Shown: positions 44,298 through 64,000 of the stretch, in pieces
How the letters are laid out: every line of letters begins with the position of its first letter
Numbering within the stretch: position 1 is the stretch's first letter
Assembly (NCBI GenBank): GCA_050015455.1
Contig: JBEKBJ010000003.1
Location: 36,202-100,201 of the forward strand
Length of the DNA stretch: 64,000 bases
From: Candidatus Binatia bacterium
GTDB taxonomy: Bacteria; Desulfobacterota; Binatia; HRBIN30
Reading direction: 5' to 3'
Position numbers and translations under genes: made by a program
The notes under the pieces: model-generated
The model's database searches: none
The model's input: the letters and a program-made list of their open reading frames with translations, nothing else
Told to the model about the DNA's origin: nothing

Positions 44298-44526
44298 CGA
44301 ACTTCGGTCGCCGCGGTACCGCGACGAAATTGCCCCGGGCCGCGACTATTGGGGGGGAGCACCGTTCCCCCCCAAGAAAACCAGGCGAAACGCCGAGCGT
44401 TCCCTTGAGGGCGGGAGCAGTGCTCTCGCCCTCAACGCAAGCGCCCGCTGGTACGACAGCCCCCCCCTAGCTACTAGCTATCCGGCTGGTTGTGACAGGC
44501 GCCACATTACAGCTACAGTGGGGCAC

Positions 44527-46398
44527 ATGAACCCATATCGTAGCCGTATCACCACCCAGGGCCGCACCATGGCCGGGGCACGAGCCTTGTGGCGCGCCAC
44601 CGGCATGAAGGATGCCGATTTCAACAAGCCCATCATCGCCATCGCCAACAGCTTCACCCAGTTCGTTCCCGGACACGTGCACCTGCACGACGTCGGCCAA
44701 CGCGTGAAGCAGGTGATAGATGCTGCCGGCGGTTACGGCGCCGAGTTCAACACCATCGCCATCGACGACGGCATCGCCATGGGACACGGCGGCATGCTCT
44801 ACTCGCTGCCCAGCCGCGATTTGATCGCCGACAGCGTCGAGTACATGGCCGAGGCCCACGTCGCCGACGCGCTCCTGTGCATCTCGAACTGCGACAAGAT
44901 AACACCGGGCATGCTCATGGCCGCCATGCGGCTCAACATCCCGACGATCTTCGTCTCCGGCGGGCCGATGGAAGCGGGCACCTCGGTTGGAACGCACGAC
45001 GCGCAGGGGCAACCGCTGAAGATCGATCTGATCGATGCCATGGTTGCCGCCGGTGACAGCGCTGTCGCCGACGAACGGCTGCTCGAGATGGAGCGCTCTG
45101 CCTGTCCCACTTGCGGCTCGTGTTCCGGTCTCTTCACCGCCAACAGCATGAATTGCCTCAACGAAGCGCTGGGCTTGGCCTTGCCCGGTAACGGCACACT
45201 GCTGGCGACACACAAGATGCGCTGGTCGCTGTTCGAGGAGGCCGCGCGCCAGATCGTGGCGCTGGCTCGCCGCTACTACGTCGATGGCGACAGCAGCGTC
45301 CTGCCCCGCAGCATCGCCACTTCCGAAGCCTTCGAGAACGCGATGACGCTGGACATCGCCATGGGGGGCTCGACCAATACCGTTTTGCACCTGCTCGCCA
45401 TCGCCCACGAGGCCGGCGTGCCTTTCACGATGCAGGACATCGATCGGCTGTCACGGCGCGTCCCCAACATTTGCAAGGTGGCGCCGTCTTCGAGCTACCA
45501 CGTCGAGGACGTGAGCCACGCTGGCGGCATCTTCACCATTCTCGGCGCGCTCGACCGCGCCGGACTCGTGCATCGCGAGGTGCGCACCGTGCACGCGGCC
45601 ACGCTCGGCGAGGGCATCGACGCCAACGACATTCGCCGATCTACCGCCACCAAAGCGGCGCAGCAGCGGGCGCTGGCGGCGCCGGGCGGGGTGCGTACGA
45701 CCGAGGCGTTCTCGCAGGACAAGTACTACGCCGCGGCCGACGCCGATACGGTCAACGGCTGCATCCGTGAGGTCGAGCATGCGTACAGCGCCGACGGCGG
45801 CCTTGCCGTGCTCTACGGCAACCTGGCCGAGGACGGCTGCATCGTGAAGACGGCCGGCGTTGATGAATCGATCTGGCACTTCGAGGGTCCGGCACGCATC
45901 TTCCACTCGCAGGAGGCGGCGTGCGAGGCGATCCTCAAGGACCGCATCAAGCCTGGCGACGTCGTCGTGATCCGCTACGAGGGGCCGAAGGGCGGACCAG
46001 GCATGCAGGAGATGCTGTACCCGACCTCGTACATCAAAGCGAAGAACCTCGGGAAGGTGTGCGCTCTGATCACTGACGGTCGCTTCAGCGGCGGCACCTC
46101 GGGGCTCAGCCTCGGTCACGTCTCGCCCGAAGCGGCTGAAGGCGGCACCATCGGCCTGGTCGAGGAAGGTGATCGCATTCGCATCGACATCCCCAACCGG
46201 CGCGTCGACGTGCTCATTGACGCGCCGATGCTCAAGGCGCGCCGCCTGGAGATGCTGGCGCGCGGCGCCAACGCCTGGAAGCCAGTCGGCCGCCACCGCG
46301 AGATTTCACGCGCGCTGCAGGCGTACGCGCTCCTGACCACCAGCGCCGCGCGCGGCGCCGTGCGTGACGTCGAACAGGTGAGCGGCGCTCGCAGGTGA
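44527..46398 (+). CDS. ilvD: Dihydroxy-acid dehydratase
   Basis: [12 protein letters not shown] and SGGPMEAG motifs, and the IlvD/EDD family C-terminus. Confidence 0.92.
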
Positions 46399-47422: not shown

Positions 47423-49978
47423 ATGATCGAGAAATACCAGAAGCACGTAGCCGAGCGGGCCGCGCAGGGCATTCCGCCGCTTCCCCTCAATCCAGAGCAG
47501 ACCGAGCAACTGTGCGGGTTGCTCACATCACCCCCGGCGGGGCAGGAGAAGCTGCTGTTGGATCTGTTCGAGAACCGTGTGCCGCCGGGAGTTGATCCGG
47601 CCGCCAAAGTCAAAGCCGCCTTCCTCGGGCAGGTCCTGAAAGGGACGGCTCGGAGCCCTCTGGTTTCCAAGGCCCGTGCCGTCGAGATCCTCGGCACCAT
47701 GCTCGGTGGTTACAACGTCGAGCATCTGATCGCGGCCTTGCAGGACGCCGAGGTCGCAGATGCTGCCGTCAAGGCGCTCTCCCGCACCACCCTGGTCTAC
47801 GACGCGTTCAACCAGGTCGAGAAGCTTGCCAAGGCCAACGGGGCGGCAAAGAAGGTTCTCGAATCATGGGCAGCGGCCGAGTGGTTCACCTCGCGGCCCG
47901 AGCTGCCCGTCGAAATCAAGGTGAAGGTTTTCAGGGTGGACGGCGAGACCAACACCGACGATTTCTCGCCCGCCAGTGACGCGTCGACCCGTCCCGACAT
48001 TCCGCTGCACGCGCTGGCGATGGGCAAGACGCGCTTTCCCGGCGGCATCGACACCATGGCCGAGTGGCGTAAGGCCGGCGCTCGCGTGGCCTTCCTCGGC
48101 GACGTGGTCGGCACCGGCTCGTCGCGCAAATCAGCCTGCAACAGCGTCCTCTGGCACATCGGCGAAGACATCCCGGCGGTGCCCAACAAGCGCCGCGGCG
48201 GCGTGATCATCGGCGGCGCCATCGCCCCCATCTTCTTCAACACCGCTGAGGACTCCGGCGGTCTTCCCCTCGTCGCCGACGTGACCGGCATCGGCTCGGG
48301 TGACGAGGTCACGATCGACACGCGAGAGGGCACGATCACCTCGGGGTCAGGCCAAGTCGTTTCGCGATTCAAGATCAGCCCGAACACGCTGCCCGACGAG
48401 TTCCGCGCCGGCGGCCGCATCCCGCTGATTATCGGCCGCGCGCTCACCGCCAGAGCGCGCGCGGCGCTCGGGATGGGCGAGACCGACGTCTTCCGCAAGA
48501 CCGAGAACCCCAAACCCAAGCCTGGCCAGGGTTACACGCAGGCGCAGAAGATCGTGGGCAAGGCAGCCGGTCTGCCGGGCGTGCTGCCGGGCAGCGCGTG
48601 CGAGCCCAAGATGACCACGGTGCTATCGCAGGACACGACGGGGCCGATGACGGCCGACGAGCTTAAGGAACTCGCCTGCCTCAGGTTCCAGAGCCCGCTC
48701 TTCTTGCAGTCGTTCTGCCACACCGCCGCCTACCCCAAACCGGCAGACGTGAAGATGCACCAGACGTTGCCGCCCTTCATCGCCGAGCGCAAAGGCGTCG
48801 CGCTACGGCCGGGCGATGGCGTCTGCCACAGTTGGATCAACCGGCTGCTGGTGCCCGATACCGTAGGCACCGGTGGCGACTCGCACACCCGCTTCCCGAC
48901 CGGCATCTCGTTCCCGGCGGGCTCCGGGCTGGTCGCCTTTGCCGGCGCGCTCGGCTTCATGCCGCTCGACATGCCCGAGTCGGTTCTGGTGCGCTTCTCG
49001 GGCGAGTTTCGCTCCGGCATTACCTTGCGCGACGCGGTGAACGCCATCCCGCTGTGGGCGATAAAAAAGGGCTTATTGACGGTACCCAAGAAGAACAAAA
49101 AGAATATCTTCAACGGTCGCATCCTCGAGATCGAGGGCCTGCCGAACCTCACGGTGGAGCAGGGCTTCGAGCTCACCGATGCGGCCGCCGAGCGCTCGGC
49201 GGCTGCCGGCTGCATCCAACTCTCCGAGGAATCGGTCAAGACCTTCCTGCGTTCCAGCGTCGCCCTCATCCGGCGCATGATCGAGGACGGCTATCAGGAC
49301 GCCGAGACGCTGGAGAAGCGCGCCAAAGCCATCGAGGCATGGCTGGCGAATCCGCAGCTGCTCAAGGCGGATGCTAACGCGGAGTACGCCGCGGTGATCG
49401 ACATCGATCTCAGCGAGATCACCGAGCCGATCGTCGCCTGCCCCAACGATCCCGACGATGTCAAGGTACTATCCGAGGTGGCCGGGACGCCGATCCAAGA
49501 CGTCTTCCTTGGTTCGTGCATGACCAACATCGGTCACTTCCGCGCCGCAGCGAAGATCTGGGAGGGCCACAAGCACAACCCGGCAACACGAACATATATT
49601 TGCCCGCCGACGCGGATGGACCAGGCCAAGCTCAAGAGCGAGGCCTACTTTGCACTGTTCAACGCGATCGGGGCACGCATCGAGACGCCCGGGTGCTCCC
49701 TCTGCATGGGCAACCAGCTGCGCGTTCCGGCCGGGGTGACCGTATTCTCCACCTCGACGCGCAACTTCGACAACCGCATGGGTGACGGCGCGAAGGTTTT
49801 CCTCGGCTCTGCCGAGCTGGGCGCGGTCACAGCGATACTGGGCAAGCTCCCGACGCCGGCGCAGTACCTCGCCGAGTTTGAGAGCCGTGTCGCCCCGCAC
49901 CGGGACGAGGTTTACAAGTACCTGCAGTTCGACGAACTCGGTCGCTTCGACGCCATCTACAACCGGCGCGATCTGTAA
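47423..49978 (+). CDS. acnB: Aconitate hydratase B (bifunctional aconitase 2 / 2-methylisocitrate dehydratase)
   Basis: The AcnB-specific N-terminal HEAT-like domain followed by a swivel domain and the aconitase catalytic domains, about 851 aa in total. Confidence 0.9.
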   Translation: MIEKYQKHVAERAAQGIPPLPLNPEQTEQLCGLLTSPPAGQEKLLLDLFENRVPPGVDPAAKVKAAFLGQVLKGTARSPLVSKARAVEILGTMLGGYNVEHLIAALQDAEVADAAVKALSRTTLVYDAFNQVEKLAKANGAAKKVLESWAAAEWFTSRPELPVEIKVKVFRVDGETNTDDFSPASDASTRPDIPLHALAMGKTRFPGGIDTMAEWRKAGARVAFLGDVVGTGSSRKSACNSVLWHIGEDIPAVPNKRRGGVIIGGAIAPIFFNTAEDSGGLPLVADVTGIGSGDEVTIDTREGTITSGSGQVVSRFKISPNTLPDEFRAGGRIPLIIGRALTARARAALGMGETDVFRKTENPKPKPGQGYTQAQKIVGKAAGLPGVLPGSACEPKMTTVLSQDTTGPMTADELKELACLRFQSPLFLQSFCHTAAYPKPADVKMHQTLPPFIAERKGVALRPGDGVCHSWINRLLVPDTVGTGGDSHTRFPTGISFPAGSGLVAFAGALGFMPLDMPESVLVRFSGEFRSGITLRDAVNAIPLWAIKKGLLTVPKKNKKNIFNGRILEIEGLPNLTVEQGFELTDAAAERSAAAGCIQLSEESVKTFLRSSVALIRRMIEDGYQDAETLEKRAKAIEAWLANPQLLKADANAEYAAVIDIDLSEITEPIVACPNDPDDVKVLSEVAGTPIQDVFLGSCMTNIGHFRAAAKIWEGHKHNPATRTYICPPTRMDQAKLKSEAYFALFNAIGARIETPGCSLCMGNQLRVPAGVTVFSTSTRNFDNRMGDGAKVFLGSAELGAVTAILGKLPTPAQYLAEFESRVAPHRDEVYKYLQFDELGRFDAIYNRRDL

Positions 49979-52600: not shown

Positions 52601-52981
52601 CTAGTCGTCGGCGCCTGGGGCTTGGATCAGATCGGAACGTTTACCTTTGCGCGGGCGCTCGGGTGCGAGTCTCCGTTCGTCGAGCATGTGGCGGACAGCG
52701 AGGATGGGGTGGTGCCGGAGCATACGCGGGCCGGCGTAACGCATCACCGTCTGCACCTGCTGGCGCAGCGACGGCTTGTAGCAGTGGATGGGGCAGTTGG
52801 CGCAGGTGGGCTTGTCATCACCGTAGGGACATTTCTCCAGCCGCTGCCGCGCGTAGGCCTGAAGCTCAGCACATTGCACACACAAGCTGCGCTTCATGCC
52901 GTGCTGGTCGCGGCAGAACAGCCGGATCATCGCCTCGATGGTCCGGCGCTCTCGGTTGGTTCTCGTCGCCGCGGCGTTCAT
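52601..52981 (-). CDS. YgbA-like 'nitrous oxide-stimulated promoter' family protein
   Basis: MIRLFCRDQHG...LCVQCAELQAYARQRLEKCPYGDDKPTCANCPIHCYKPSLRQQVQTVMRYAGPRML matches the conserved Cys/His pattern of YgbA-family proteins. Confidence 0.65.
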   Translation of the reverse strand: MNAAATRTNRERRTIEAMIRLFCRDQHGMKRSLCVQCAELQAYARQRLEKCPYGDDKPTCANCPIHCYKPSLRQQVQTVMRYAGPRMLRHHPILAVRHMLDERRLAPERPRKGKRSDLIQAPGADD

Positions 52982-53304
52982 GAATAGATGATCGACCGCC
53001 CCCACCCTACCCGGGCGGTTGAAACCGCGGCCACAAACTGCGCCAAGCCCGCCGGAGCTTGTCTTGAGCCCCGTCGAAGGGCGGGCTCCCCACCCAACAT
53101 CAGCCCAGTCGGCGCAGGCCGACTTCGTGCTTTTCGTAGGCGCGAATTCATTCGCCGGCCGGCGAAACGTTTATCCACACTCTCTTAAGCCGGCTTGCTC
53201 TTATCACGCCCAGACATTGATCCGCGGGCGGCGCCGCCCTCACGCACAGACTTCTGTGTCCAGCACCCGAGAGCTTGGGACTTCTCAGCCGGAGGGCGAG
53301 GAAC

Positions 53305-54741
53305 CTACTGTGGTTGCGCGCTACCAGCGGGTGGCGCTTCACCTTTCAGATATGCGTCGATGCTGTTCGCGGCGATGCGGCCCTGGCCCATGGCCAGAAT
53401 CACCGTGGCGGCGCCGGAGACGATGTCGCCACCAGCGTAGACGCCCGGGATCGAGGTCGCCATGGTCTTCTCATCCGCGACTACCGTGCCCCACTTGGTT
53501 ACCTTCAGCTCGGGCGTCGCGCGCGGCACCAGCGGGTTGGGCTTGTTGCCAATGGCAACGACCACGGTGTCGAGCTCCATGATGAACTCGGAGCCCTTTA
53601 TCGGCACGGGGCGCCGCCGGCCCGAGGAGTCGGGTTCGCCGAGCTCCATCTGGATGCATTCCATCCCGACCACGCGACGGCGCTGGTCTCCCAGGACGCG
53701 CGTTGGGGCGGTGAGCAACTTGAACTCTATCCCTTCCTCTTCCGCATGGTGCACTTCTTCTATCCGGGCCGGCATCTGCTCGCGTGCCCGACGGTAGGCG
53801 ATGGTCACATCAGCGCCCTGGCGCAACGCCGTGCGCGCGCAGTCCATGGCCACATTGCCGCCGCCTATGACGGCCACGCGTTCGCGGTTGATCGGCGGCG
53901 TATCGTACTCGGGGAACAGATACGACTTCATCAGGTTGGAGCGTGTCAGATACTCATTGGCGGAATAGACGCCGATGAGGTTCTCCCCGGGAACCTCCAT
54001 GAACGAGGGCAGCCCGGCGCCCGTGCCGATGAACACGGCGTGATAGCCCTCTTCATCGAACAGCTCGCGGATGGTGGCGTTGCGGCCGACCACGTAGTCA
54101 AAAACGAATTCGACGCCGAGCTTCTTCAAGTAATCTACCTCGGCGTGCACGATCACCTTCGGCAGGCGGAACTCGGGGATGCCGTATATCAACACGCCAC
54201 CCGGATCTTGCAGCGCCTCGAACACCGTGACCTCGTGTCCCTTGAGGATGAGATCGCCGGCGACCGTCAGCCCCGCGGGCCCGGCGCCGATGACGGCGAC
54301 CCGCTTGCCCGTTTTGGGCGCCACCGGTGGGATGAGGACCTGACCCGTGCTGCGCTCGTAGTCGGCCACGAAACGCTCCAGCCGTCCGATGGCGACCGGC
54401 TTCTGCTTGATGCCGATGACGCAGACGCCTTCACACTGATCTTCCTGCGGGCAGACGCGGCCACAGACTGCCGGCAGAGAATTTGTCTCCTTGATCTTGC
54501 GCGCCGCCTCGACGAACTTGCCTTCCTGAATCAGCTTGATGAAACCGGGAATATCGATGTTGACCGGGCAGGCGGGGACGCATTTCGCGTTTTTGCACAG
54601 GATGCACCGCTGCGCCTCCAGCATGGCGAGATCGTCGGTGAAGCCGTACGGGACCTCGTTGTAGTTGTTGATCCGGTCCTCCGGCGCCTGCTCCGGCATC
54701 GGCTGGCGGGGAATGTCTTTCTTCTTCACTGGCTGTGCCAT
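53305..54741 (-). CDS. nfnB: NfnB / glutamate-synthase small-subunit-like NADPH:ferredoxin oxidoreductase subunit (FAD, NADPH, 2x[4Fe-4S])
   Basis: N-terminal Cys clusters (CILCKNAKCVPACP; CGRVCPQEDQCEGVC), FAD site VAVIGAGPAGL and NADPH site VAVIGGGNVAMD. Confidence 0.8.
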   Translation of the reverse strand: MAQPVKKKDIPRQPMPEQAPEDRINNYNEVPYGFTDDLAMLEAQRCILCKNAKCVPACPVNIDIPGFIKLIQEGKFVEAARKIKETNSLPAVCGRVCPQEDQCEGVCVIGIKQKPVAIGRLERFVADYERSTGQVLIPPVAPKTGKRVAVIGAGPAGLTVAGDLILKGHEVTVFEALQDPGGVLIYGIPEFRLPKVIVHAEVDYLKKLGVEFVFDYVVGRNATIRELFDEEGYHAVFIGTGAGLPSFMEVPGENLIGVYSANEYLTRSNLMKSYLFPEYDTPPINRERVAVIGGGNVAMDCARTALRQGADVTIAYRRAREQMPARIEEVHHAEEEGIEFKLLTAPTRVLGDQRRRVVGMECIQMELGEPDSSGRRRPVPIKGSEFIMELDTVVVAIGNKPNPLVPRATPELKVTKWGTVVADEKTMATSIPGVYAGGDIVSGAATVILAMGQGRIAANSIDAYLKGEAPPAGSAQPQ

Positions 54742-54750
54742 GGCTGCTAC

Positions 54751-55602
54751 TCAGATGGCGTGGCCGTGCGGCCGCGGGGCCGCCGGCGCGGTGCGCGCTA
54801 CCGAGCGGATCTCCTCTTCGCTGTAGGCGGCGCGGCGGTCAAACAGCTCTTCCCAATCGACCTGGTGGGCATCGAAGAACGGGCCATCGACGCAAGCGAA
54901 CTTCATCTCGTTGGCGACGGTCACCCGACACGCGCCACACATGCCGGTGCCGTCGAGCATGATCGGATTCAACGCCACCAGCGTCTTCACCCCGAACGGT
55001 TTGGTGGTGTTGGCGGCGAGCATCATCATGAACACGCAACCTATGGCGATCACCCGGTCCAGCGGCTCCCCGTTTTCGAGCTTCCGCTTGATGATGTCCA
55101 CCGAATGGCCCTTGGTTCCGTTGGAGCCATCGGTGGTGGTTTGAATCATCTCGTCCGAGGTCGCCAGCAACTCGTCGCGGTAGTAGTGGAGGTACTGGCT
55201 GTTGGCCTCGATGACGGTGATCACGCGGTTGCCGGCCTGCTTCAAAGCGCGGGCGAGGCTGAGTATCGCGCCGATGCCGTAGCAGCCGGCCGCCAGGGCT
55301 ACGGTGCCGTACTTCTCGATTTCCAACGGGACGCCGAGCGGGCCGACGAGGTGCGCGATCTGATCGCCGGCCTTGAGCAGGACGAACTTGCGGCTCGATT
55401 GTCCGACTTCCTGCACGACCAAGGTGATCGTACCGGCCTGCCGGTCCCAGTCGCACAACGTAAACGGCACGCGCTCCGAGTGTTCATCGACCATCACGAT
55501 GACGAACTGGCCGGGCCGCGCCTTCTTGGCGATGGCCGGCGCGTAGATCACCGCCTGGTGCGCGTTCGGCGCGATTTCACGTTTCTGCAGGATCTCGAAC
55601 AC
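54751..55602 (-). CDS. nfnA: NfnA / PyrK-like ferredoxin-NADP reductase subunit (FAD, [2Fe-2S])
   Basis: PyrK/SudB-like fold with C-terminal CGACRV [2Fe-2S] ligands. The gene sits immediately upstream of nfnB, the canonical nfnAB order. Confidence 0.75.
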   Translation of the reverse strand: MFEILQKREIAPNAHQAVIYAPAIAKKARPGQFVIVMVDEHSERVPFTLCDWDRQAGTITLVVQEVGQSSRKFVLLKAGDQIAHLVGPLGVPLEIEKYGTVALAAGCYGIGAILSLARALKQAGNRVITVIEANSQYLHYYRDELLATSDEMIQTTTDGSNGTKGHSVDIIKRKLENGEPLDRVIAIGCVFMMMLAANTTKPFGVKTLVALNPIMLDGTGMCGACRVTVANEMKFACVDGPFFDAHQVDWEELFDRRAAYSEEEIRSVARTAPAAPRPHGHAI

Positions 55603-55605
55603 GGC

Positions 55606-57228
55606 TCAACCTCCAACCGCGGCGGCGGCCGCTTCCGCCGGCGGCAGCTCGCTCAAGCCGCGGACCTTCTCCTCCAGGTTGTGGCCGCGGAAATGGGTCC
55701 GCCGGTAACGAGGGTCGCCGGCGGCGGGCGCCTTCTGCAACTGCCGGATGCGCAGGCCGGCCTTGCCGGCCCCGATCTCTGCCTTGATGGCGGCCGCCGA
55801 TTCGTACTCGAAGCCTTCGGCACCCATCGCCCGCGCCAGCTCGGTGATGATTTGCCAATCGGGCTTGGCCTCGCCGGGTGGGTCGCAGGCCTTACGCAAC
55901 GGCCGCATCAGCCCCTGGCCGTCGACCCAGGTGCCCGCCACCTCGGCCAGCACCGCGGCAGGCAGCGAGACATGCGCTCGTTCGGCAAGGGCCGTGGGAT
56001 AGCAGTCCTGCGTGATCAGCACTTCGAGCTGGGCGAGCCCGGCCGCATCGACGAAATCACCGGTGAGCAACGCCGCGCGCACGCCGCTCGGCAGCGCGCC
56101 GCGCGACGCGCCATCTCCATTCGGCCGGATCTCTACGTAATGCGGCGACCGCATCACTGCACTGGTGAACTTCTGAAACACATAGCGGTCTTCGAGGGTG
56201 CTGCTGGTGTCGCACACCAAGGCGAAGCCGTCGCCGACGAACGGCTGCAGCCGCTCGACGGTATGCGCCAGCGCCTGCTCCCAGGATAACGCGCGCAGCA
56301 CTTTTCCGATCCGCACCTGCGGCTTCTTCAGACGGGTGACGCCGTTGAGGAACTCTGGAATGGCGAAGCGGCCGAGGACGCAGATGGGCACGCGCGTGTT
56401 GATGCCACGCGCCATCACCGCCCGCTTCAGCGGCGACGCCTGCACGGTGATCGCACAAGCGGCCTCGCACAAGGTGCAGGTCGTGGCGGTGAAGCGCGCC
56501 GGAGCGCCGAACCATTTGGCGTAACGGTCGGAGAGACTCCCGGTCGGGCAGACGTCGATGCACGAGCCGCAGAAACGGCAGCCCGCGTCAGAAAGCGAAC
56601 GGCCGAAGGCCTCACCGATGTGCGTCTGGCTACCGCGGCCGACGAACTCGATCGTGCTCTGCCCGTGATGTTCTTTACAGATGCGCACGCAGCGGCCGCA
56701 CAGGATACACAGGTTCAGGTCACGGTCGAGGAACGGATCGGAGCGCTCGATCGGGAGGTGACGGTAGAAGGGCACGTAGGGAAGAGAGCAGAGGCCGATG
56801 CTCTCTGACAGATCGCGGATCCCGCAGACTTGCTTGTTGTTGCACGTGTGGCAGCCGGTGGTGCAGCCCGCCTTTTCAGACCTCGGGCGGTATTGCTCGC
56901 AGAGATCCCGCTTATCGCAGACCAGGCAGGCTGAAGGATGCTCGGCGAGGATCAACTCCAGCACGGAACGCCTCAGGTTCTGGAGGGTCGGAGTGTCGGT
57001 CTTTACGACCATGCCCTCCGTCGCCAGTGTCGAGCAGGAAGCGGGGTAGCCCCGCACCCCGTCGATCTCGACGATGCACATCCGGCAGGCGCCGAAGGCC
57101 GGCAAGCTCGGGTGTGTACAGAGGTGAGGTATGGAGATGCCGTGGCGCAGAGCTGTTTGCAACACGGTCTCGCCGGCGTTGGCCGCGACCTGGCGGCCGT
57201 CAATAGTCAGGGTAGCGGCTGTTTCCAT
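55606..57228 (-). CDS. NuoG/HndD-like multi-FeS subunit ([2Fe-2S] ferredoxin domain, several [4Fe-4S], truncated molybdopterin-oxidoreductase-like domain; no hydrogenase H-cluster motifs)
   Basis: The N-terminus has a plant-type ferredoxin pattern (CRMCIVEIDG). Multiple CxxCxxCxxxCP motifs are present, and the C-terminal domain resembles the NuoG C-terminus. None of the [FeFe]-hydrogenase L1/L2/L3 motifs are seen. Confidence 0.65.
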   Translation of the reverse strand: METAATLTIDGRQVAANAGETVLQTALRHGISIPHLCTHPSLPAFGACRMCIVEIDGVRGYPASCSTLATEGMVVKTDTPTLQNLRRSVLELILAEHPSACLVCDKRDLCEQYRPRSEKAGCTTGCHTCNNKQVCGIRDLSESIGLCSLPYVPFYRHLPIERSDPFLDRDLNLCILCGRCVRICKEHHGQSTIEFVGRGSQTHIGEAFGRSLSDAGCRFCGSCIDVCPTGSLSDRYAKWFGAPARFTATTCTLCEAACAITVQASPLKRAVMARGINTRVPICVLGRFAIPEFLNGVTRLKKPQVRIGKVLRALSWEQALAHTVERLQPFVGDGFALVCDTSSTLEDRYVFQKFTSAVMRSPHYVEIRPNGDGASRGALPSGVRAALLTGDFVDAAGLAQLEVLITQDCYPTALAERAHVSLPAAVLAEVAGTWVDGQGLMRPLRKACDPPGEAKPDWQIITELARAMGAEGFEYESAAAIKAEIGAGKAGLRIRQLQKAPAAGDPRYRRTHFRGHNLEEKVRGLSELPPAEAAAAAVGG

Positions 57229-57233
57229 GGGCG

Positions 57234-60200
57234 CTACTCCGCAAAACGATAGTCGCAGCGCAGGCAGCGCGCGCATTCCATGCGTGCCTGGTCACGATCC
57301 ACGGGTTGCTCCACTTCGTCGAGGTTCATTCGGGCTGACAGCTGCAGAGATCGCTGTTTCATCCGCGCGGCCGTCACGGGTTCGGCCTCGGGGTCGAAGG
57401 AGGCCGGGTTGTTCATGGCGTCCCGCCAGAAGGCAACCGAGCGCTCGGCCGGCGCGACGTCCTTGGACAACTCTTCGTTGATGGCGCAGGCCGCCCGTTC
57501 GCCGGCGGCGATGGCCGCAAGCGCGATGCTGGGGCCCGTGACCACGTCGCCGCCTGCATAGATGACCGCGGTGCTGGTGGCGTTAGAGAACGGGTCGACC
57601 TGGATCCTTCCTGCGCGGGTGATGGTGATACGCGTCTGTTTCCCGATGTCACCCAGCACCGGCCTCTGGCCGATGGCGGCGATGATGCTGTCCGCTTCGA
57701 AGGACATCTCCTCTCCAGTGGGCTCGGGCCGGCGGCGCCCGTCGAGCTCGAACCCCGAGAGCTTCATGCGCTGGCAGACGAGGCGGCTCGCCGCCCCGTT
57801 GCCTTCGATGCGCTCCGGTGCGGCGAGGAAGACCAGCTTCACGCCTTCCGCCTCGGCCTCTTCGATCTCGGTCTTGATGGCCGGCATCTCCTCACGCGTG
57901 CGGCGATATACGAGAGTGACGTCAGCGCCCATGCGGAAAGCCATGCGGCAGGAGTCGATAGCCACGTCGCCGCCGCCGATCACGACGACCTTCTTGCCGA
58001 GAGGGAAGTCCTGGCCACGGTTGCGCGCCAGAAGGAAGTCGAGCCCCTGCGTCACGCCTTTGAGGTCCTCTCCGGGGATGCCGAGCCGGATACCCTCCCA
58101 GCAGCCCAGGCCGAGGAAGAAGGCGCGATAGCCTTCCTGCACGAGAGCTTCGTAGGTGAGATCCTTGCCGAACTCCGTGCCGAGCTTGAGATCGATGCCG
58201 AAGCCTAGGATCCAGTCGATCTCCTCCTTCAGGATGTCGCGGGGCAGCCGGTACTCGGGGATGGCGTACGCCAGCATGCCGCCGGGGCGCTCTTCCCGTT
58301 CGAAGATGGTCACCGGGTAACCGAGCCGTCGCAGATAGTAGGCGCAGGAGAGGCCGGCCGGCCCGGAGCCGATGACCGCGATCTTCTTGCCGTGGTTGTG
58401 CGGGTTGTCGCGCACCATCTGCTGCGGCTCGGGCCTGCGCGCCGTGTCCACCATGTGACGCTTGATGGCGCGGATGGCGACCGGAGAATCGATCTGCTGC
58501 CGGCGGCACTTGTCCTCACACGGGTGCGGGCACACCCGCGCGCAGATGGAGGGCAAGGGGTTCCGCTCCAGGTGGGAGGCCAACGCCTCCTCGTAGCGGC
58601 CCTCGCCGACCAGCGAGATGTACAGCGGCACGTCCACTCCGGCCGGGCACCCGTTCTCGCAAGGCGCGTGGACGATATCCGGGCAGACCCCGGCCGGACA
58701 GTACTTCTCGCGGATGTGAGCTTCGTATTCCTGCCGGAAATAGCGCAGGGTGGTCAAAACGGGATTGGGGGCCGTCTGACCAAGGCCGCACAGCGATGCC
58801 TTCTGCACCGTCTCGGCGAGGCTCTCCAGCCGCTCCAGGTCTTCTTCCTGTCCCTTCCCGGCACAGATGCGCTCGAGGATGTCCAGCATGATGCGGGAGC
58901 CGACGCGGCAGGGGGGGCACTTGCCGCAGGACTCCTCCCGCGTGAAACTCAGGAAGTAGCGGGCGATGTCCACCATGCAGCTATCTTCATCCAGCACTAT
59001 CATCCCGCCCGACCCCATGATCGAGCCAGCCTCGGCGAGGGTCTTGTAGTCCACCGGTAGGTTGAGAAGTTCTCTCGGGATGCAGCCGCCGGAGGGCCCG
59101 CCCGTCTGCACGCCCTTGAGTTGCCGCCCGCCCGGCACGCCGCCGCCGATCTCGTAGACGATCTCTTTGAGTGTCGTCCCGAGCGGCACCTCGATGAGCC
59201 CTGTGCGCTGGATCTTACCCGCCAGCGCGAAGGTCTTGGTGCCCCGGCTCGTCTCGGTACCGAAGCCCGCAAACCAGGCCGCTCCGTTGCGCATGATGGA
59301 GGCGAGGCTGCCCAAGGTTTCGACGTTTTGGATCACGGTGGGCTTGCCCCAGAGGCCGCTTGTTGCCGGGAAAGGCGGACGCGGTCGCGGCATGCCACGC
59401 CGGCCTTCGATCGAGGCGATCAGCGCGGTCTCCTCACCGCAGACGAAGGCGCCCGCACCCTTCTTGATCTTGACGTCGAACGAGAAGCCGGAGCCTTGAA
59501 TGTCGGCGCCCAACAAGCCGAGGTCTCGCATCTGGCTGATGGCGAGCTGCAGACGCTTGATGGCAAGCGGATACTCGGCGCGGCAGTAAATGTACCCCTG
59601 GGATGCGCTGATGGCGAAGGCCGCGATCAACATGCCTTCGAGCACCGCGTGCGGGTCACTCTCCAAGAGCGAGCGGTTCATGAAGGCGCCCGGGTCGCCC
59701 TCGTCGGCGTTGCAAATCAGGTAGCGCGGCAGCACACCCGTGCTCCGGCAGAACTCCCACTTCTGCCCGGTGGGGAAGCCGGCGCCACCGCGCCCGCGGA
59801 TCCCCGCCGCCTTGACCTCGGCCACGACCGCCTCGGGTCCCAGTTCGAGTGCGCGCAGGAACCCCCGGTAGCCATCGCGCGCCAGATAATGGTGGACGTT
59901 CTCCGGATCGATTAGGCCGCAGTTGCGCAGGACGTTGCGCACTTGGCCCCGCAGCGCCGGGTGCTCCTCGATTGGACCGATACCGTCGACACTCCCGGGT
60001 CCCGTTCTGCCCAATGCCCATTCCGCGCACGGATCGTTGCCCAGCACGAAGCGGCGCACTAGAGATGACATCTCGTCGGGACCGACGTTGGCGTAGCAAA
60101 CGCCGGGGAGTCCCGGCTTCTCTATGACGACGAGCGGCTCCAGAAAGCACGGGCCCATGCAGCCCACTTCGATGATGCGGGCGCCGAGACCTCGATCCCG

Positions 60201-60353
60201 GACTTCGGTGTGGAGGCGCTCGATCACCCGCTCGGCGCCCGCGGCCCGGCCGCAAGTGGCGGCGCCTACGCGGAAGACGGGCACGCTGGCCCGCTCGAGT
60301 TCCTGCCATTTCGCCTGAGCTTCAGCGTACTCTTGTTGAAGGGTAGTCGTCAT
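57234..60353 (-). CDS. Fusion protein: NuoE-like thioredoxin-fold [2Fe-2S] domain + NuoF-like FMN/NADH-binding domain + 2x[4Fe-4S] ferredoxin + GltD-like FAD/NADPH oxidoreductase domain
   Basis: GIRGRGGAGFPTGQKWEF (the NuoF FMN site), ESCGKCPPCRVG, CPAGVCPDIVHAPCENGCPAGV, then KKIAVIGSGPAGLSCA and VVVIGGGDVAIDSC (GltD-like). 1039 aa in total. Confidence 0.75.
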   Translation of the reverse strand: MTTTLQQEYAEAQAKWQELERASVPVFRVGAATCGRAAGAERVIERLHTEVRDRGLGARIIEVGCMGPCFLEPLVVIEKPGLPGVCYANVGPDEMSSLVRRFVLGNDPCAEWALGRTGPGSVDGIGPIEEHPALRGQVRNVLRNCGLIDPENVHHYLARDGYRGFLRALELGPEAVVAEVKAAGIRGRGGAGFPTGQKWEFCRSTGVLPRYLICNADEGDPGAFMNRSLLESDPHAVLEGMLIAAFAISASQGYIYCRAEYPLAIKRLQLAISQMRDLGLLGADIQGSGFSFDVKIKKGAGAFVCGEETALIASIEGRRGMPRPRPPFPATSGLWGKPTVIQNVETLGSLASIMRNGAAWFAGFGTETSRGTKTFALAGKIQRTGLIEVPLGTTLKEIVYEIGGGVPGGRQLKGVQTGGPSGGCIPRELLNLPVDYKTLAEAGSIMGSGGMIVLDEDSCMVDIARYFLSFTREESCGKCPPCRVGSRIMLDILERICAGKGQEEDLERLESLAETVQKASLCGLGQTAPNPVLTTLRYFRQEYEAHIREKYCPAGVCPDIVHAPCENGCPAGVDVPLYISLVGEGRYEEALASHLERNPLPSICARVCPHPCEDKCRRQQIDSPVAIRAIKRHMVDTARRPEPQQMVRDNPHNHGKKIAVIGSGPAGLSCAYYLRRLGYPVTIFEREERPGGMLAYAIPEYRLPRDILKEEIDWILGFGIDLKLGTEFGKDLTYEALVQEGYRAFFLGLGCWEGIRLGIPGEDLKGVTQGLDFLLARNRGQDFPLGKKVVVIGGGDVAIDSCRMAFRMGADVTLVYRRTREEMPAIKTEIEEAEAEGVKLVFLAAPERIEGNGAASRLVCQRMKLSGFELDGRRRPEPTGEEMSFEADSIIAAIGQRPVLGDIGKQTRITITRAGRIQVDPFSNATSTAVIYAGGDVVTGPSIALAAIAAGERAACAINEELSKDVAPAERSVAFWRDAMNNPASFDPEAEPVTAARMKQRSLQLSARMNLDEVEQPVDRDQARMECARCLRCDYRFAE

Positions 60354-60396
60354 GGCTCTTTGGTCCGCGAATCCTGGATGGATGTTCTTCTGCTTC

Positions 60397-60885
60397 CTAG
60401 CGTCCGACGATCGATCGCACCTTGCGTGGTGTCACGCGGGCATGCACCTCGCCGTCCACAGTGACGGTCGGAGCGAGCGCGCAGCAACCGATGCAGGCGA
60501 TGCGCTGAAGTTCATATTCGCCGTCGTCGGTAATTTCGCCCGTGCGGACGCCCAGACGGTGGTGGAACTCTTCCATGACCTGGCGCCCGCCGCGTACGTG
60601 GCAAGCTGTGCCCTGGCACACCCGGATGGTGTGTTTGGCCGGCGGCTTGAAGCGAAACTGGGCATAGAAGGTGGCGATCCCGTAGATTTCGTTGTCCGAG
60701 ATGTTGCTCGCCTGCGCCAGCTCTCGTAGCGTCTCTTCCGTCAGGTAGCCGTCGCGGTCCTGGATATCCTGAAGGATCGGAATCAGATGCTGGGTGCTAA
60801 TGCCGTTGCTACCCTCTCCGGCGAGTGCGGATGAGTAGTGGGCAAGGATTTCCCCCAGGGTGGATGCCGATGCGGTCGCGCTCAT
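60397..60885 (-). CDS. NuoE/HoxE-like thioredoxin-fold [2Fe-2S] subunit
   Basis: The CQGTACHVRG...CIGCCALAP Cys pattern of the 24-kDa subunit family. Confidence 0.8.
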   Translation of the reverse strand: MSATASASTLGEILAHYSSALAGEGSNGISTQHLIPILQDIQDRDGYLTEETLRELAQASNISDNEIYGIATFYAQFRFKPPAKHTIRVCQGTACHVRGGRQVMEEFHHRLGVRTGEITDDGEYELQRIACIGCCALAPTVTVDGEVHARVTPRKVRSIVGR

Positions 60886-60930: not shown

Positions 60931-60946
60931 TGCAAATTCTAAGCCA
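60931..60946 (-). promoter_or_regulatory. Sigma-54 (-24/-12) promoter-like element upstream of the nuoE-like operon
   Basis: The - strand reads TGGCTTAGAATTTGCA, matching TGGCAC-N5-TTGCW in both conserved dinucleotides and spacing. It lies about 45 nt before the start codon, inside a conspicuously AT-rich 160-bp intergenic region. Confidence 0.5.
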
Positions 60947-61047
60947 CTTCCAGATTCTTGCCCAGCCGGGGTGGCGGGCTTTGGTCTTCCTACTGGTGGG
61001 AACTACTGCTGGATTTTGTCAGCTATCATAGAGAACGCACAGGGAAT

Positions 61048-61986
61048 TCACAACAGGAAACGTGTCCCCACACTATTCTGAATGAAGGCATCGGGGAACT
61101 CTCGCGCGATGCGGTGAGTCGCCTTCCAGCCGGTGCAGTGAGCTGGGACAATCAAACCAGGATCGATTTGTTTGAGCGCAGCAACGGTGGGCTCGATGGC
61201 CTGCTCAAAAAACAAGCCGGACAGATGAAATCCGCCCATCACGGCGGCGGTTTTCTCGATTCCGGTGAGTTGCCGCGCGTGCTGGACGGTATTGATGACA
61301 CCGGCGTGCCCGCACCCGGTGAGCACCACCAAACCCTTGTCTCTGACGTGCACGACAATCGCTTGATCATCATAGAGGTACGGGTCCGGCCGGTAGCTGC
61401 CGTCGATGAAAGCATGGTGGAGCGGAAGGCCGACTTCAAACGAGGTCGCCCGGGACACCTGTCCAGTGACTAGCACAAGATCGTCCAGCAGAAGCGAGGG
61501 ACCGCGCTCTTCGGCGAATTCGACGCCGTTTTGCGACAAGCTCTGGCGATCCGGGGGCGGCAGGTTCACCTCGAGACCGTCCGGGAGAACGAGTTTGCGT
61601 TGCAGGAAGGCGTCGGGGTGCAGCACCAGCGGCATCCTACGCTTGCCGAGGCGATCGACGAGTCTTGGTAGCCCTTGCGTGTGATCGGCGTGGCCGTGAC
61701 TGAGGACGATCGCTTGCAGATCGCCTGCCTTCAGCCCGAGCACGTCCATGTTGTGTACCAGACCGGTCTTGCTCAGGCCGGTGTCGAAGAGCAGGGAGGC
61801 GGAAGTGTTACCCTTATGCACGGTGACCAGCGCCGCGAAGCCGTGCTCCGCTATGGGATTCTCCCGCGTCAGCACGTCGGGCGAGAACGGCAGGCGCTGG
61901 ACGTTCTGGGCGCCGGGAAGCAGCAGATCGATGCTGTTATCGAGGATCGTGAGGATCTCGACCCGATCGACCTCTTTCAGCGGCAT
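61048..61986 (-). CDS. MBL-fold metallo-hydrolase
   Basis: HxHxDH motif (LSHGHADHTQG) plus downstream His/Asp ligands. Confidence 0.8.
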   Translation of the reverse strand: MPLKEVDRVEILTILDNSIDLLLPGAQNVQRLPFSPDVLTRENPIAEHGFAALVTVHKGNTSASLLFDTGLSKTGLVHNMDVLGLKAGDLQAIVLSHGHADHTQGLPRLVDRLGKRRMPLVLHPDAFLQRKLVLPDGLEVNLPPPDRQSLSQNGVEFAEERGPSLLLDDLVLVTGQVSRATSFEVGLPLHHAFIDGSYRPDPYLYDDQAIVVHVRDKGLVVLTGCGHAGVINTVQHARQLTGIEKTAAVMGGFHLSGLFFEQAIEPTVAALKQIDPGLIVPAHCTGWKATHRIAREFPDAFIQNSVGTRFLL

Positions 61987-61991
61987 CGCGG

Positions 61992-62132
61992 TCAGTTCAC
62001 GCCTCCATTAGGGCGGCAGTATCTACACTGGTCGCACGCCTGGATCAAGCCGTAAGCGTCTCCGTAAGCGTCTCCACATTTGTGGCAGGGACGGCTAGGG
62101 CTTCTACCCGATGGGATCCGGCCCCATGACAA
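61992..62132 (-). CDS. Possible 46-aa zinc-ribbon mini-protein (TTG start), 5 nt upstream of the MBL gene
   Basis: MSWGRIPSGRSPSRPCHKCGDAYGDAYGLIQACDQCRYCRPNGGVN has a CxxC...CxxCxxC pattern. The ORF is shorter than the ORF-track cutoff and its TTG start is unverified. Confidence 0.25.
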   Translation of the reverse strand: MSWGRIPSGRSPSRPCHKCGDAYGDAYGLIQACDQCRYCRPNGGVN

Positions 62133-62198
62133 CCACTACTCACTCTGGCCGCGACCTGTCATTGCATGGTAGTGAACATCTGAAGGACGGATGCAAGG

Positions 62199-62450
62199 AT
62201 GGCCGAAGGTAATCCGATGAGAATCGAAGAGGCGGTGCTTACAAGGCTGCGGACACTTGGGGACAGCGAGCGCGAACGCCTGCTCCGGCAGATAGACGAA
62301 TGGATTGCCCAAAACGCTGCCGCGCAGTCTGCCGACGTGAACGGGGCGATGGCGGCGGTAAGGACGACGTGGGCGAGCGTAGCGCTGGACCGAGCGACGC
62401 TCCGCTGGATCGCTGAGGACACAGAGCTGGAGTATGAACACGGTGGCTGA
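62199..62450 (+). CDS. Putative antitoxin (DUF2281-like small protein) paired with the PIN toxin
   Basis: An 83-aa ORF overlapping the downstream PIN gene by 17 nt. The helical MRIEEAVLTRLRTLGDSERERLLRQIDEW N-terminus resembles PIN-associated antitoxins. Confidence 0.5.
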   Translation: MAEGNPMRIEEAVLTRLRTLGDSERERLLRQIDEWIAQNAAAQSADVNGAMAAVRTTWASVALDRATLRWIAEDTELEYEHGG

Positions 62451-62934
62451 TGTGCAGAGTGGCAGCAGCGTGTTCATCGATGCCAATATTTTCATCTACC
62501 ACTTCGGCGGAGAGTCCACTGATTGCAGGATCTTGCTGGAACGGTGCGCGCGCCGTGAGTTGCAGGGCTACAGCTCGACCTCTGTCCTTGCAGAGGTGCT
62601 GCATCGTCTGATGGTGGCCGAGGCCATCCAAAAGGAGCTGGTCACCGCAAAAACCGCTGTCAGGCGGCTGAAATCCAAGCCGGAGGTCGTCAGACAGCTT
62701 ACGAAGTACAACGAAGATGTGGGCAAGATCCGACAGATGAATCTCACCATTCTGCCGCTCACTCTCGATGTCCTTACCAAGAGCGAAGCGGTCAGGAGGG
62801 AAGAGGGATTGCTGACCAACGACTCTCTTGTGGTTGCCTTCATGCGGGACAGTGGGCTCTCGAAGCTGGCGACCACGGATGGCGACTTCGGAGGAATTGA
62901 CGGCCTCGATGTGTACCGGCCGGCCGACGTTTGA
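62434..62934 (+). CDS. vapC: PIN-domain ribonuclease (VapC-like toxin)
   Basis: Acidic PIN residues in VFIDANIFIY, LTNDSLVVA and TTDGDF. Confidence 0.75.
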   Translation: MNTVADVQSGSSVFIDANIFIYHFGGESTDCRILLERCARRELQGYSSTSVLAEVLHRLMVAEAIQKELVTAKTAVRRLKSKPEVVRQLTKYNEDVGKIRQMNLTILPLTLDVLTKSEAVRREEGLLTNDSLVVAFMRDSGLSKLATTDGDFGGIDGLDVYRPADV

Positions 62935-63155
62935 GGGGACGAACGTCGGGTCTCCACCTCTGAGGTCTGCGCCAGTGTCGAGCTTGCCCCGCAGGACGTC
63001 GCTTCTCGTGCCACCCAAAGGATGCACAACGATCACATCCGCAACAGGTGCAGGCGGAGTGAAGGTCCGATCGTAGACGGGCACGAGTTAGCCCTGATGT
63101 GACAATAGATGAGTCTGTTTCCGTGCTGCGGCAGGCGAACCTGTCATTCCCGCGC

Positions 63156-63175
63156 ACGCGGGAATCCAGGCGGGG
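63156..63175. repeat. Perfect inverted repeat ATTCCC-N8-GGGAAT (attcccgcgcacgcgggaat)
   Basis: The palindrome is seen directly. It sits at the transition from the vapBC pair to a lower-GC region of fragmentary ORFs. Confidence 0.5.
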
Positions 63176-64000
63176 AGAGGCGGACGGGTGCACAGCCATG
63201 GATGCCCGCTTTCGAGTCGCTTTCCAAAGGGTGACGAGCCAGTGGTGCTCGCCTTCGTTGTCTTCTCGTGAGGAGCAGAAACTGTATGCGAAACACTCAT
63301 AGATCGCGGCGGCCGCTGGCCGCGGAATCGGTTGCCCGCATGGCGGACAAGGGCGAGGATGTATCGCGCTTCTTCACCAACGAGGGAAGGATGGTGCGCC
63401 CTGCGCAAGGTAGTCGTCGTACGTCGACTTGAAGTGGTAGTCGATAAGCTCCCAAGTCGCACGCGGAAATGACCCCACAAGGTCGAAGAGCGACGCGTTC
63501 GGCTTTCCGAGATCATCTGTCGCCATATTGCTCACCCGGTGATCACGCACCTCACCTATCAGATTAGCCGCACCGCCCCAGGCAAATGGGGAGGCGAACG
63601 GTCAAGCCGATTCAGGAACTCGGCATAGGCTTTGGGACTTAGCCATAGCGTACTGAAGCCAACAACGGGTTCCGCAGCGACGCCGTTGAACTCATAGGTC
63701 AACCTCGCAGCTGCCATATCTCTTTTGCCCTTGGCAACGCAATGGTCACCGCGCAAGTGCTACGCTTCGATCCAAAACTGCCACATGGCTGAAGTGTCAA
63801 GGCGTCAGCGATGCTGTTGCGGCCTGTCATCAGCATCGGGGGCGTATGAAAGTTCCTAGCAAGGGAAAAGTGAGCGAAAGATCCGAGCCAACCATCATGG
63901 CTTACCCAGCGAAAGCTGAAAGGCGAAAGTGAAAAGCTTTGCCTGTCCCCTCTTGCCGGTGAACGAGCACGCGGCCTACTCACCGCGCCGCGTTGCGTGT

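Follow-up and report, generated by a model that had tools for sequence, protein, structure and literature searches.

NfnSL and NfnABC/Stn have been presented as two unrelated solutions to the same task, and members of the Thermococcaceae have one or the other. A locus in an uncultured Candidatus Binatia bacterium raises the question of whether both can be parts of one enzyme. The 64,000-nucleotide stretch of DNA that we analyzed (contig JBEKBJ010000003.1; hereafter the window, with a G+C content of ~64%) contains five adjacent genes, read on the minus strand from position 60885 to position 53305, that encode a NuoE-like protein, a NuoF–GltD fusion, a NuoG-like protein, and the two products of an nfnAB pair, which we refer to as NfnS and NfnL to keep them apart from the subunits of NfnABC. 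From the comparisons set out below, we propose that these five genes probably encode a single soluble multi-flavin iron-sulfur (Fe-S) oxidoreductase that is a hybrid of both Nfn types and would balance NADH, NADPH, and ferredoxin.

To assign domains to the five predicted proteins, we used Pfam and NCBIfam profiles, a check that had been suggested in a preliminary description of this locus. The gene composition and order given there were borne out, and all five open reading frames (ORFs) are present on the minus strand at the coordinates it listed (53305-60885), with a coding-type bias in third-position G+C (GC3 of 0.76-0.87). In cluster order, the genes are separated by gaps of 43, about 5, 3, and 9 bp.

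The first gene (60397-60885, minus strand) encodes a NuoE-like protein of 162 amino acids (BfuC; PF01257, 2Fe-2S_thioredx, 153 bits) that contains Cys90, Cys95, Cys131, and Cys135. The best solved relatives of this protein are the C subunits of Bfu enzymes, with scores that compare with 84 bits against the Nqo2 subunit of complex I. It is close to the corresponding subunits of Stn/NfnABC (NfnC, 134 bits; StnA, 115 bits) and to HydC (134 bits), yet it scores highest against the C subunit of the NiFe-Bfu hydrogenase (7t2r_C, 141 bits).

The second gene (57234-60353, minus strand) encodes the fusion, a protein of 1039 amino acids in which Complex1_51K, SLBB, and NADH_4Fe-4S domains are followed by Fer4_20 and Pyr_redox_2 domains. 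Residues 1-562 (58668-60353, minus strand) form a BfuB-type core with a thioredoxin (Trx)-like domain, a predicted FMN/NAD(H) site, and the sites B1 and B2. Residues 27-561 align to StnB, NiFe-Bfu HydB, and Caldicellulosiruptor saccharolyticus (Csac) NfnB at 673-681 bits, the top score being that of StnB (8oh5_B, 681 bits). When HydB and Thermococcus sibiricus (Tsi) NfnB are included, the scores of the NuoF half range from 639 to 681 bits, versus 393 bits against Nqo1 of complex I. The preliminary description had placed an N-terminal NuoE-like domain ahead of the fused NuoF and GltD modules, and we recovered it as the Trx-like domain: residues 27-125 of the fusion match positions 3-93 of both StnB and Csac NfnB, and three cysteines of its set (Cys34/65/69/86), namely Cys34, Cys65, and Cys69, are conserved. 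The metal at this site may be a [2Fe-2S] cluster or zinc.

Within the core, the predicted ligands of the B1 [4Fe-4S] cluster are Cys476, Cys479, Cys482, and Cys522. The Cys3His site B2 comprises Cys459, His546, Cys552, and Cys557, which align to C438, H525, C531, and C536 of 7t2r_B and are invariant among 20 aligned homologs; in the Bfu survey of Schut et al. (2022), the B2 histidine is lacking in non-bifurcating homologs. The fusion also contains the Bfu-type motifs DEGDPGAFM and GAGAFVCGEE, present in the window as ICNADEGDPGAFMNRS and GAGAFVCGEETALI, and in the alignment of the same survey these motifs separate Bfu enzymes from non-bifurcating forms (DEGxxGxF, GAGAY). Lys198 and Glu308 of the fusion are the counterparts of Csac NfnB K164 and E274, which hold the NADH ribose according to the NfnABC structure paper. 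As both residues match these ligands and are invariant in the aligned homologs, the FMN site looks specific for NAD(H).

Like HydABC and BfuABC (Schut et al. 2022), the window proteins have the BfuBC core motifs, the ligands of B1, B2, B5, and C1, and a BfuA subunit with A1 and [4Fe-4S] clusters. With Stn/NfnABC from Sporomusa ovata (Sov), Csac, and Tsi (8oh5, 9bov, 9n5u), they share the FMN, B1, and B2 residues, a Lys-ligated [4Fe-4S] cluster, a permuted RCxxC motif, and an A subunit whose Fdh-like domain is catalytically dead. Among solved structures, theirs come closest to the NuoF half, and their NfnL-like insert best matches the GltD half. Judged by these alignments, the three-subunit core is of the Bfu/HydABC type and closest to Stn/NfnABC.

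The second half of the fusion (residues 563-1039; 57234-58667, minus strand; PF14691 and PF07992) is a Stn-type NfnL/GltD-like module. It aligns end to end with residues 102-567 of Csac NfnA (9bov_A) and residues 102-568 of StnC (8oh5_C), and to the insert of Tsi NfnA over residues 105-500. It scores 346-358 bits against these three NfnL-like inserts and 275 bits against canonical NfnL. Together with the score of the NuoF half against StnB, these values uphold the kinship to Stn that had been suggested for this locus. Two [4Fe-4S] clusters are predicted in the GltD half (Cys565/569/604/608/612/616, Lys631, and Cys1030/1033), and they are completed by the C-terminal RCxxC motif. The module also has an FAD site and an intact GGG…YRR motif (YRR816-818), which we take to be the NADP(H)-binding motif of GltD-type modules. 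This motif is kept in both modules of that type, the fused one and NfnL, in agreement with the two NADPH modules predicted in the preliminary description. Among 20 aligned homologs, Lys631, the counterpart of the Lys cluster ligand K170 of Csac and Sov, is present in at least 90%, and Arg702, the counterpart of Sov R239, in all; the roles of Csac/Sov K170 and Sov R239 are taken from the Stn/NfnABC structure papers.

This module stands where other BfuB proteins have a C-terminal ferredoxin-like domain (B3/B4; IPR017896). The domain, with its two [4Fe-4S] clusters, belongs to the definition of the BfuB family (Schut et al. 2022); it is the ferredoxin-binding site, and mutation of B4 abolishes bifurcation in Tsi NfnABC. 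In the fusion, we found no Fer4-type Pfam match after NADH_4Fe-4S, the alignment to BfuB proteins ends at residue 527 of 584, and only 7 residues lie between the last B2 ligand and the first cysteine of the GltD half. Unlike BfuABC, the window therefore has a B subunit without an IPR017896-type domain, one that fails the family's own domain definition. It also differs from Stn/NfnABC in the placement of the NfnL-like module. In those enzymes, the module interrupts the A subunit, following the N-terminal [2Fe-2S] domain and preceding the NuoG/Fdh-like part, an architecture that we also observed at three related loci (L064, L070, and L079; L numbers denote loci throughout), whereas in the window it is at the C-terminus of B and the A subunit is uninterrupted. 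As far as the alignments allow it to be placed, a Stn-type NfnL-like NADPH/FAD module occupies the position of the ferredoxin-binding domain in this B subunit.

Two near-orthologous clusters, L084 and L086, bear directly on the origin of this arrangement. Their proteins are 70% (NuoF-like), 70-72% (NuoG-like), 78% (NfnS), and 78-81% (NfnL) identical to those of the window, and their B subunits end in a normal 2×CxxCxxCxxxCP ferredoxin-like domain, which the B subunit of L051 also retains. Because near-orthologs retain the ferredoxin-binding domain, we interpret the window cluster as the product of a domain swap. In a neighbor-joining tree of the F domain, drawn without support values, the window, L084/L086, and the fused forms L001, L002, and L004 fall into one clade, which is sister to other NfnSL-linked, unfused forms, and fused and unfused B subunits are interleaved throughout. 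The ferredoxin-binding domain is considered essential for Bfu-type bifurcation; here, it and an NADPH/FAD module appear to have been exchangeable during evolution. The fusion itself is not an assembly artifact, as an identical protein is encoded on 14 metagenome contigs in public data and in a Candidatus Binatia metagenome-assembled genome (MAG) at NCBI.

The third gene (55606-57228, minus strand) encodes the NuoG-like A subunit (BfuA), with Fer2_4, NADH-G_4Fe-4S_3, and Fer4_Nqo3 domains and the tail of the Molybdopterin model. The full ORF extends to 57276 and would specify 556 amino acids. The gene most likely starts at Met17 (57228), giving a protein of 540 amino acids and correcting the ORF listing, as this codon lies 5 nt past the stop of the fusion gene and agrees with public gene calls and with the lengths of homologs. 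The best solved relative of the protein is FdsA from Rhodobacter capsulatus (6tg9_A, 219-223 bits), of which only residues 24-374 and 669-765 have counterparts. The ~300 residues in between (FdsA ~375-668), which presumably hold the active-site Cys, His, and Arg of the Rhodobacter protein, are deleted, and nothing matches beyond FdsA residue 765. Pfam gave no Molydop_binding (PF01568) match in the NuoG-like protein, matched the Molybdopterin model (PF00384) only at profile positions 282-352 of 353, and gave no Fe_hyd_lg_C (H-cluster domain) match in any of the five proteins.

The Fe-S ligands of the NuoG-like protein, in contrast to the catalytic part, are all kept, including those of the cluster that would adjoin the pterin. 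The predicted clusters are a [2Fe-2S] cluster, a His-ligated [4Fe-4S] cluster, two ferredoxin-type [4Fe-4S] clusters, and a Molybdop_Fe4S4-like cluster. The subunit is thus like that of FdsABG in its ligand set, down to the cluster beside the pterin site, and unlike it in the ~300-residue deletion and in having no C-terminal dinucleotide-binding domain; its partner B and C subunits are of the Bfu type, whereas FdsB and FdsG are non-bifurcating. Unlike Stn/NfnABC, the window cluster has no B3/B4, a much shorter Fdh-like remnant, and two extra subunits, NfnS and NfnL. By these comparisons, the NuoG-like protein is a formate dehydrogenase alpha subunit without the catalytic site and without the C-terminal dinucleotide-binding domain.

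We considered whether the cluster could instead encode an ordinary formate dehydrogenase or hydrogenase whose catalytic subunit had been overlooked. Such enzymes are apparently built on NuoF–GltD fusions elsewhere: the fusion is partnered with full-length FdhA at L003, L006, L019, L021, L029, L043, and L062, and at L005 (see below), and with a true [FeFe] HydA at L008, L031, L044, and ~15 further loci, where Fe_hyd_lg_C is readily detected. The partial Molybdopterin match in the NuoG-like protein could also be read in this way. However, this protein lacks the region of FdsA ~375-668 as well as Molydop_binding and Fe_hyd_lg_C, no gene for such a catalytic subunit is present among the annotated flanking genes (the neighbors of the cluster and most of the window), and the truncated NuoG-like form recurs in many assemblies at 60-94% identity, so that we regard this explanation as effectively refuted by the sequence. 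The preliminary description had likewise reported neither an H-cluster in the NuoG-like protein nor a hydrogenase or formate dehydrogenase module in the window, and what is left of a pterin domain is a non-catalytic remnant. Given the conservation of the truncated form at this level of identity, the NuoG-like protein is a maintained scaffold and not the product of a decaying gene.

A further feature of this subunit is an extra G-C-(H)-x-C-x5-C motif (residues 126-135 of the 540-amino-acid protein; 56824-56853, minus strand), which lies within ~25 inserted residues that follow the His-ligated [4Fe-4S] motif. We observed this motif in every NfnSL-linked BfuA examined (L001, L002, L051, L052, L054, L055, L058, and L084-L086), and the corresponding G-C-x2-C-x5-C motif was absent from the true FdhA partners examined (L003 and L005). 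The three cysteines may form an additional metal or Fe-S site.

The last two genes encode NfnS (54751-55602, minus strand; 283 amino acids; DHODB_Fe-S_bind; PRK06222, 359 bits) and NfnL (53305-54741, minus strand; 478 amino acids; Fer4_20 and Pyr_redox_2; TIGR01316, 618 bits against a cut-off of 472). In their canonical gene order, their 9-bp gap, and their NfnL cluster motifs, they are like NfnSL of Thermotoga maritima (Tma; 4ylf) and NfnI of Pyrococcus furiosus (Pfu; 5jca). NfnL has FAD and NADPH Rossmann folds and the cluster motifs RCx2Cx4Cx3CPV and GRVCPQExQCx3C, which are given in a review of Nfn distribution and are present here as QRCILCKNAKCVPACPV and GRVCPQEDQCEGVC. NfnS, which scores 275 bits against 5jca_S and 228 bits against 4ylf_A, has conserved [2Fe-2S] and FAD motifs; its dinucleotide loop reads AGCYGIG, versus the canonical GGGVGVA. 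The pair had been called canonical in the preliminary description, a label that fits NfnB (NfnL) but not the dinucleotide loop of NfnA (NfnS).

To place this altered loop, we compared NfnS proteins from different settings. Every examined Bfu-linked NfnS whose A subunit is truncated or degenerate has a loop of the form (G/A)GC(Y/F)G(I/V)G. The loop is GGGxG in Pfu NfnI, in Tma NfnA, and in the stand-alone NfnS of L079; the NfnS of L005, which lies beside a full FdhA, has AGGVG, which keeps the canonical central G-x-G and not the C-Y of the linked form. Pfu NfnII ('Xfn', 5vj7) likewise has an altered, Tyr-containing loop, with IGAYTG in place of GGGVG. It is unlike the window NfnS (similarity, 187 bits) in that it forms a free heterodimer with an unknown partner, and the loop substitutions differ in detail. 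One paper reported the NAD site of Pfu NfnII to be occluded; as the title of a 2025 paper still calls NfnII NAD+-dependent, the analogy serves here only as a lead.

We then asked if the NfnSL pair is part of the same enzyme as the three subunits encoded upstream. The five-gene order recurs in Phycisphaerales (L001) and at L084 and L086, and the same order with an unfused B subunit is present in Eubacteriales, Bacteroidales, Syntrophorhabdus, and Desulfocapsaceae. At L057, a Methanothrix locus, the order is kept as far as NfnS, and NfnL was not detected. The NuoG-like protein and NfnS form single polypeptides at L002 (a Hydrogenedentes contig), L055, and L085, and NuoG-like–NfnS fusions of ~828 amino acids account for 59 of the 120 database homologs that match the NuoG-like protein best, a combination that is not among the four fusion patterns catalogued in the Nfn review. 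The window pair thus differs from other NfnSL in the AGCYGIG loop of NfnS, in being embedded in a Bfu operon, and in the frequent fusion of NfnS to a NuoG-like protein among its relatives. In addition, the NfnS loop and the extra cysteines of BfuA are signatures that co-vary with NfnSL linkage.

These observations bear on the simplest alternative, namely that two independent enzymes are encoded side by side, a Stn-like NADPH:NAD+ oxidoreductase of three subunits and an NfnAB transhydrogenase of the ordinary, stand-alone kind. The sequence of NfnL is canonical throughout, NfnSL is a free heterodimer in the organisms where it has been characterized, and nfnAB is known from varied gene contexts, all of which would be expected of independent enzymes. 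On the other hand, about half of the nearest NuoG-like homologs (the 59 of 120) are covalently fused to NfnS, the five-gene synteny extends across distant phyla with gaps as short as 3 and 9 bp, and the co-varying signatures are absent from the stand-alone NfnS of L079 and from true FdhA partners, which makes two separate enzymes an unlikely explanation. The synteny, the gene fusions, the NfnS loop signature, and the BfuA Cys signature instead lead us to conclude, from comparative data, that the nfnAB pair belongs to the same enzyme as the NuoE-like, fusion, and NuoG-like proteins, in keeping with the connection to the upstream genes drawn in the preliminary description. The abundance of the NuoG-like–NfnS fusions and the conserved synteny also argue, indirectly, that NfnS is not part of a free heterodimer here. 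This operon and its many relatives indicate that the NfnSL and NfnABC/Stn types are also combined in single complexes.

The sites predicted for such a complex are one FMN/NAD(H) site, two GltD-type FAD/NADP(H) sites, and one NfnS FAD with a [2Fe-2S] cluster. We propose that the complex would act like Nfn and Stn, keeping the pools of NADH, NADPH, and ferredoxin in balance. In this scheme, NAD(H) would react at the FMN of the BfuB-type core, and NfnS, no longer handling NAD(H), would pass electrons to the Fe-S chain of BfuA. This transfer is suggested by the fusions, by the altered loop, and by analogy to Pfu NfnII with its occluded NAD site, and the extra three-Cys motif of BfuA may assist it. 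NfnL would provide one NADP(H) site and, at its distal [4Fe-4S] cluster, the sole remaining canonical ferredoxin site. In other Bfu enzymes, the low-potential branch runs from C1 through the C-terminal clusters to ferredoxin. Here, the low-potential branch of FMN–B1–C1 would end on the fused GltD module and reduce NADP+ directly, with the module replacing B3/B4 as the acceptor of low-potential electrons from the mobile BfuC cluster. The main argument for assigning it this role is that the C-terminal modules are interchangeable in near-orthologs. A built-in route from low-potential clusters to NADP+ is also plausible because NfnB alone has been reported to catalyze ferredoxin:NADP+ oxidoreduction. 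We put forward bifurcation by the five-gene enzyme as a hypothesis.

Several points weigh against this proposal. Bfu-type bifurcation cannot be assumed, because B3/B4 is missing and the B4 mutation eliminates bifurcation in Tsi NfnABC. Our redox bookkeeping suggests several odd or unattractive stoichiometries, none of them preferable, such as NADH + 4 reduced ferredoxins + 3 NADP+. Bifurcation in series would be wasteful, and NfnL acting as a plain dehydrogenase would create a futile NADPH→NADP+ loop. As the linker in the NuoG-like–NfnS fusions is 30-58 residues long, these fusions prove co-assembly and not which cofactors touch. The NfnS loop is still glycine-rich, and we infer the loss of NAD binding by analogy to Pfu NfnII. 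Finally, the F-domain tree is a neighbor-joining tree that carries no support values.

Some of the same evidence could be accommodated by a different enzyme, in which a non-bifurcating NuoEF–NuoG diaphorase arm, as in FdsABG or Hox, replaces the lost NAD site of NfnS, the FAD of NfnL is the sole bifurcating center, and the fused GltD module is a plain NADPH entry or a regulatory site. In its favor, the B subunit lacks the ferredoxin-binding domain on which Bfu-type bifurcation depends, the loop of NfnS is changed as it is in Pfu NfnII, whose NAD site is reported to be occluded, and by our reckoning such an enzyme would keep the canonical Nfn stoichiometry with no second bifurcation. However, the core retains every other Bfu-specific feature that is missing from non-bifurcating homologs (the B2 His and Cys residues, the N-terminal Trx-like domain, and the DEGDPGAFM and GAGAF motifs), and near-orthologs retain a ferredoxin-binding domain that would be purposeless on a mere diaphorase. 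Furthermore, energy coupling would be short-circuited if an NADPH site were connected to the NADH site without gating. We therefore consider a diaphorase arm to be rather improbable, if a serious rival, and continue to favor a five-subunit enzyme in which the fused module takes the low-potential electrons.

We also considered whether the NfnSL-like pair and the fused module could, rather than balance pyridine nucleotides, feed a third substrate, such as a sulfur compound of the kind suggested for SudAB/Nso-type relatives, or a YgbA_NO-linked partner. In discussions of Pfu NfnII as 'Xfn', an unknown substrate takes the place of NAD(H); the StnC homolog NsoC has been called a sulfur oxidoreductase dependent on NADPH; and a YgbA_NO gene lies beside the three closest clusters. 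Yet Pfam and NCBIfam profiles found no catalytic domain for another substrate in the operon, YgbA is absent from most related clusters, and the nucleotide-binding motifs are all intact, which together make a third substrate very unlikely. In the window, the YgbA_NO gene (52601-53005, minus strand; 134 amino acids; PF11756, 149 bits) encodes a protein with seven Cys in ~45 residues and lies 299 bp downstream of nfnL. Homologs are directly beside the cluster at L084 (downstream, 60% identity) and L086 (upstream, 50% identity) and absent from the other loci. This gene may be accessory to the cluster or co-regulated with it.

To assess how widely the NuoF–GltD fusion occurs, we examined its database matches and their gene neighborhoods. 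Each of the best 120 matches to the fusion has both domain sets, and query coverage is 97% or more in all but two of them. Among the best 80 loci, on contigs from one genome per species, ~50 have the fusion, and the fusion loci span Planctomycetota, Chloroflexota, Desulfobacterota, Verrucomicrobiota, Nitrospirota, Acidobacteriota, Bacillota, Omnitrophota, an Asgard archaeon, and others. A small HoxU-like protein is the partner of the fusion at L035, in a Loki/Promethearchaeota MAG. The fusions that are partnered with HydA or FdhA would be part of hydrogenases or formate dehydrogenases in which an NADPH module replaces the ferredoxin-binding domain. At L005 (positions 9499-18025), a Dehalococcoidia cluster encodes NuoE, NuoF–GltD, and NfnSL together with a full FdhA, which scores 279 bits against Molybdopterin and 124 bits against Molydop_binding, and this cluster may be an intermediate between the formate dehydrogenase-linked and NfnSL-linked forms. 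An SfrB-like gene, composed of a NuoG N-terminal part and GltD, lies upstream of this cluster.

We also put forward a broader proposal, which we regard as tentative and somewhat doubtful. NuoF–GltD B subunits could represent a large overlooked branch of the Bfu family in which the low-potential arm leads to an NADP+-reducing flavin and not to ferredoxin, so that the enzymes would split electrons between NAD+ and NADP+ (~100 mV apart in vivo). In Binatia, where this core would be coupled with NfnSL as a second, flavin-based bifurcating enzyme, the result would be the first complex in which two bifurcation sites of different mechanism operate in series.

We found no description of a NuoF–GltD fusion or of an NfnSL-linked Bfu cluster in the literature that we searched, the coverage of which is incomplete and no proof of novelty. 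The Bfu survey (Schut et al. 2022) required a C-terminal ferredoxin domain, and its table of types has no NfnSL-linked type; HydDB assigns to group A3 any HydA that has 'NuoF' after it. If our proposal is true, there are more Bfu enzymes than surveys requiring that domain can detect, and the group A3 rule hides a distinct class of NADP-linked hydrogenases. Moreover, the window cluster and L084/L086, which differ mainly in one domain, would provide a clean handle on the low-potential branch of Bfu enzymes. The five-gene arrangement is common in metagenomes and, as a finding from sequence inference only, is of specialist interest in electron bifurcation.

A weak sigma-70-like promoter match is located at 60936-60964 on the minus strand, ~50 nt upstream of the first gene of the cluster. 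In a scan for promoters and terminators, counts were at shuffled expectation, and this match is not significant by itself; it is only compatible with a single transcription unit. The same scan, with counts at this background level, found no terminator-like site on the minus strand within the cluster. An ORF of 1004 amino acids on the plus strand (53275-56289), which lies over nfnL, nfnS, and the NuoG-like gene, was rejected as an artifact of high G+C content, as its codon-position GC pattern is non-coding. We also rejected a Bam-type context (class II benzoyl-CoA reductase, in which BamGHI are NuoEFG-like), as there are no Hdr-like or BamB genes near the cluster.

Upstream of the cluster, at 61000-64000, the G+C content of the window falls to 0.59-0.61. 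This segment contains a metallo-β-lactamase (MBL)-fold gene (61048-61986, minus strand) and a PIN-domain gene (62434-62934, plus strand), which adjoin the cluster only in copies of the same contig and not in other relatives. A ferredoxin-dependent AOR (aldehyde:ferredoxin oxidoreductase) had also been noted in the window, and it is indeed present, truncated by the end of the window to a fragment at 10-1356 on the plus strand (AFOR_C, 449 bits); 52 kb separate it from the cluster, and there is no sign that the two are linked. We rejected a link between the two, given this distance and the housekeeping, pilus, and lysine-biosynthesis genes that lie between them. These include type IV pilus genes for a PilQ-like secretin of 712 amino acids, PilP, PilN, and PilM (28311-33343, minus strand) and a lysine-biosynthesis block (34278-38246, minus strand) that, by Pfam content, comprises dapB, dapA, dapF, and a gene for a pyridoxal phosphate-dependent Orn/DAP/Arg decarboxylase, probably lysA. 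Closer to the cluster are argH (38703-40079), ilvD (44518-46398), and the aconitase B gene (47423-49978), an ordinary chromosomal housekeeping setting.

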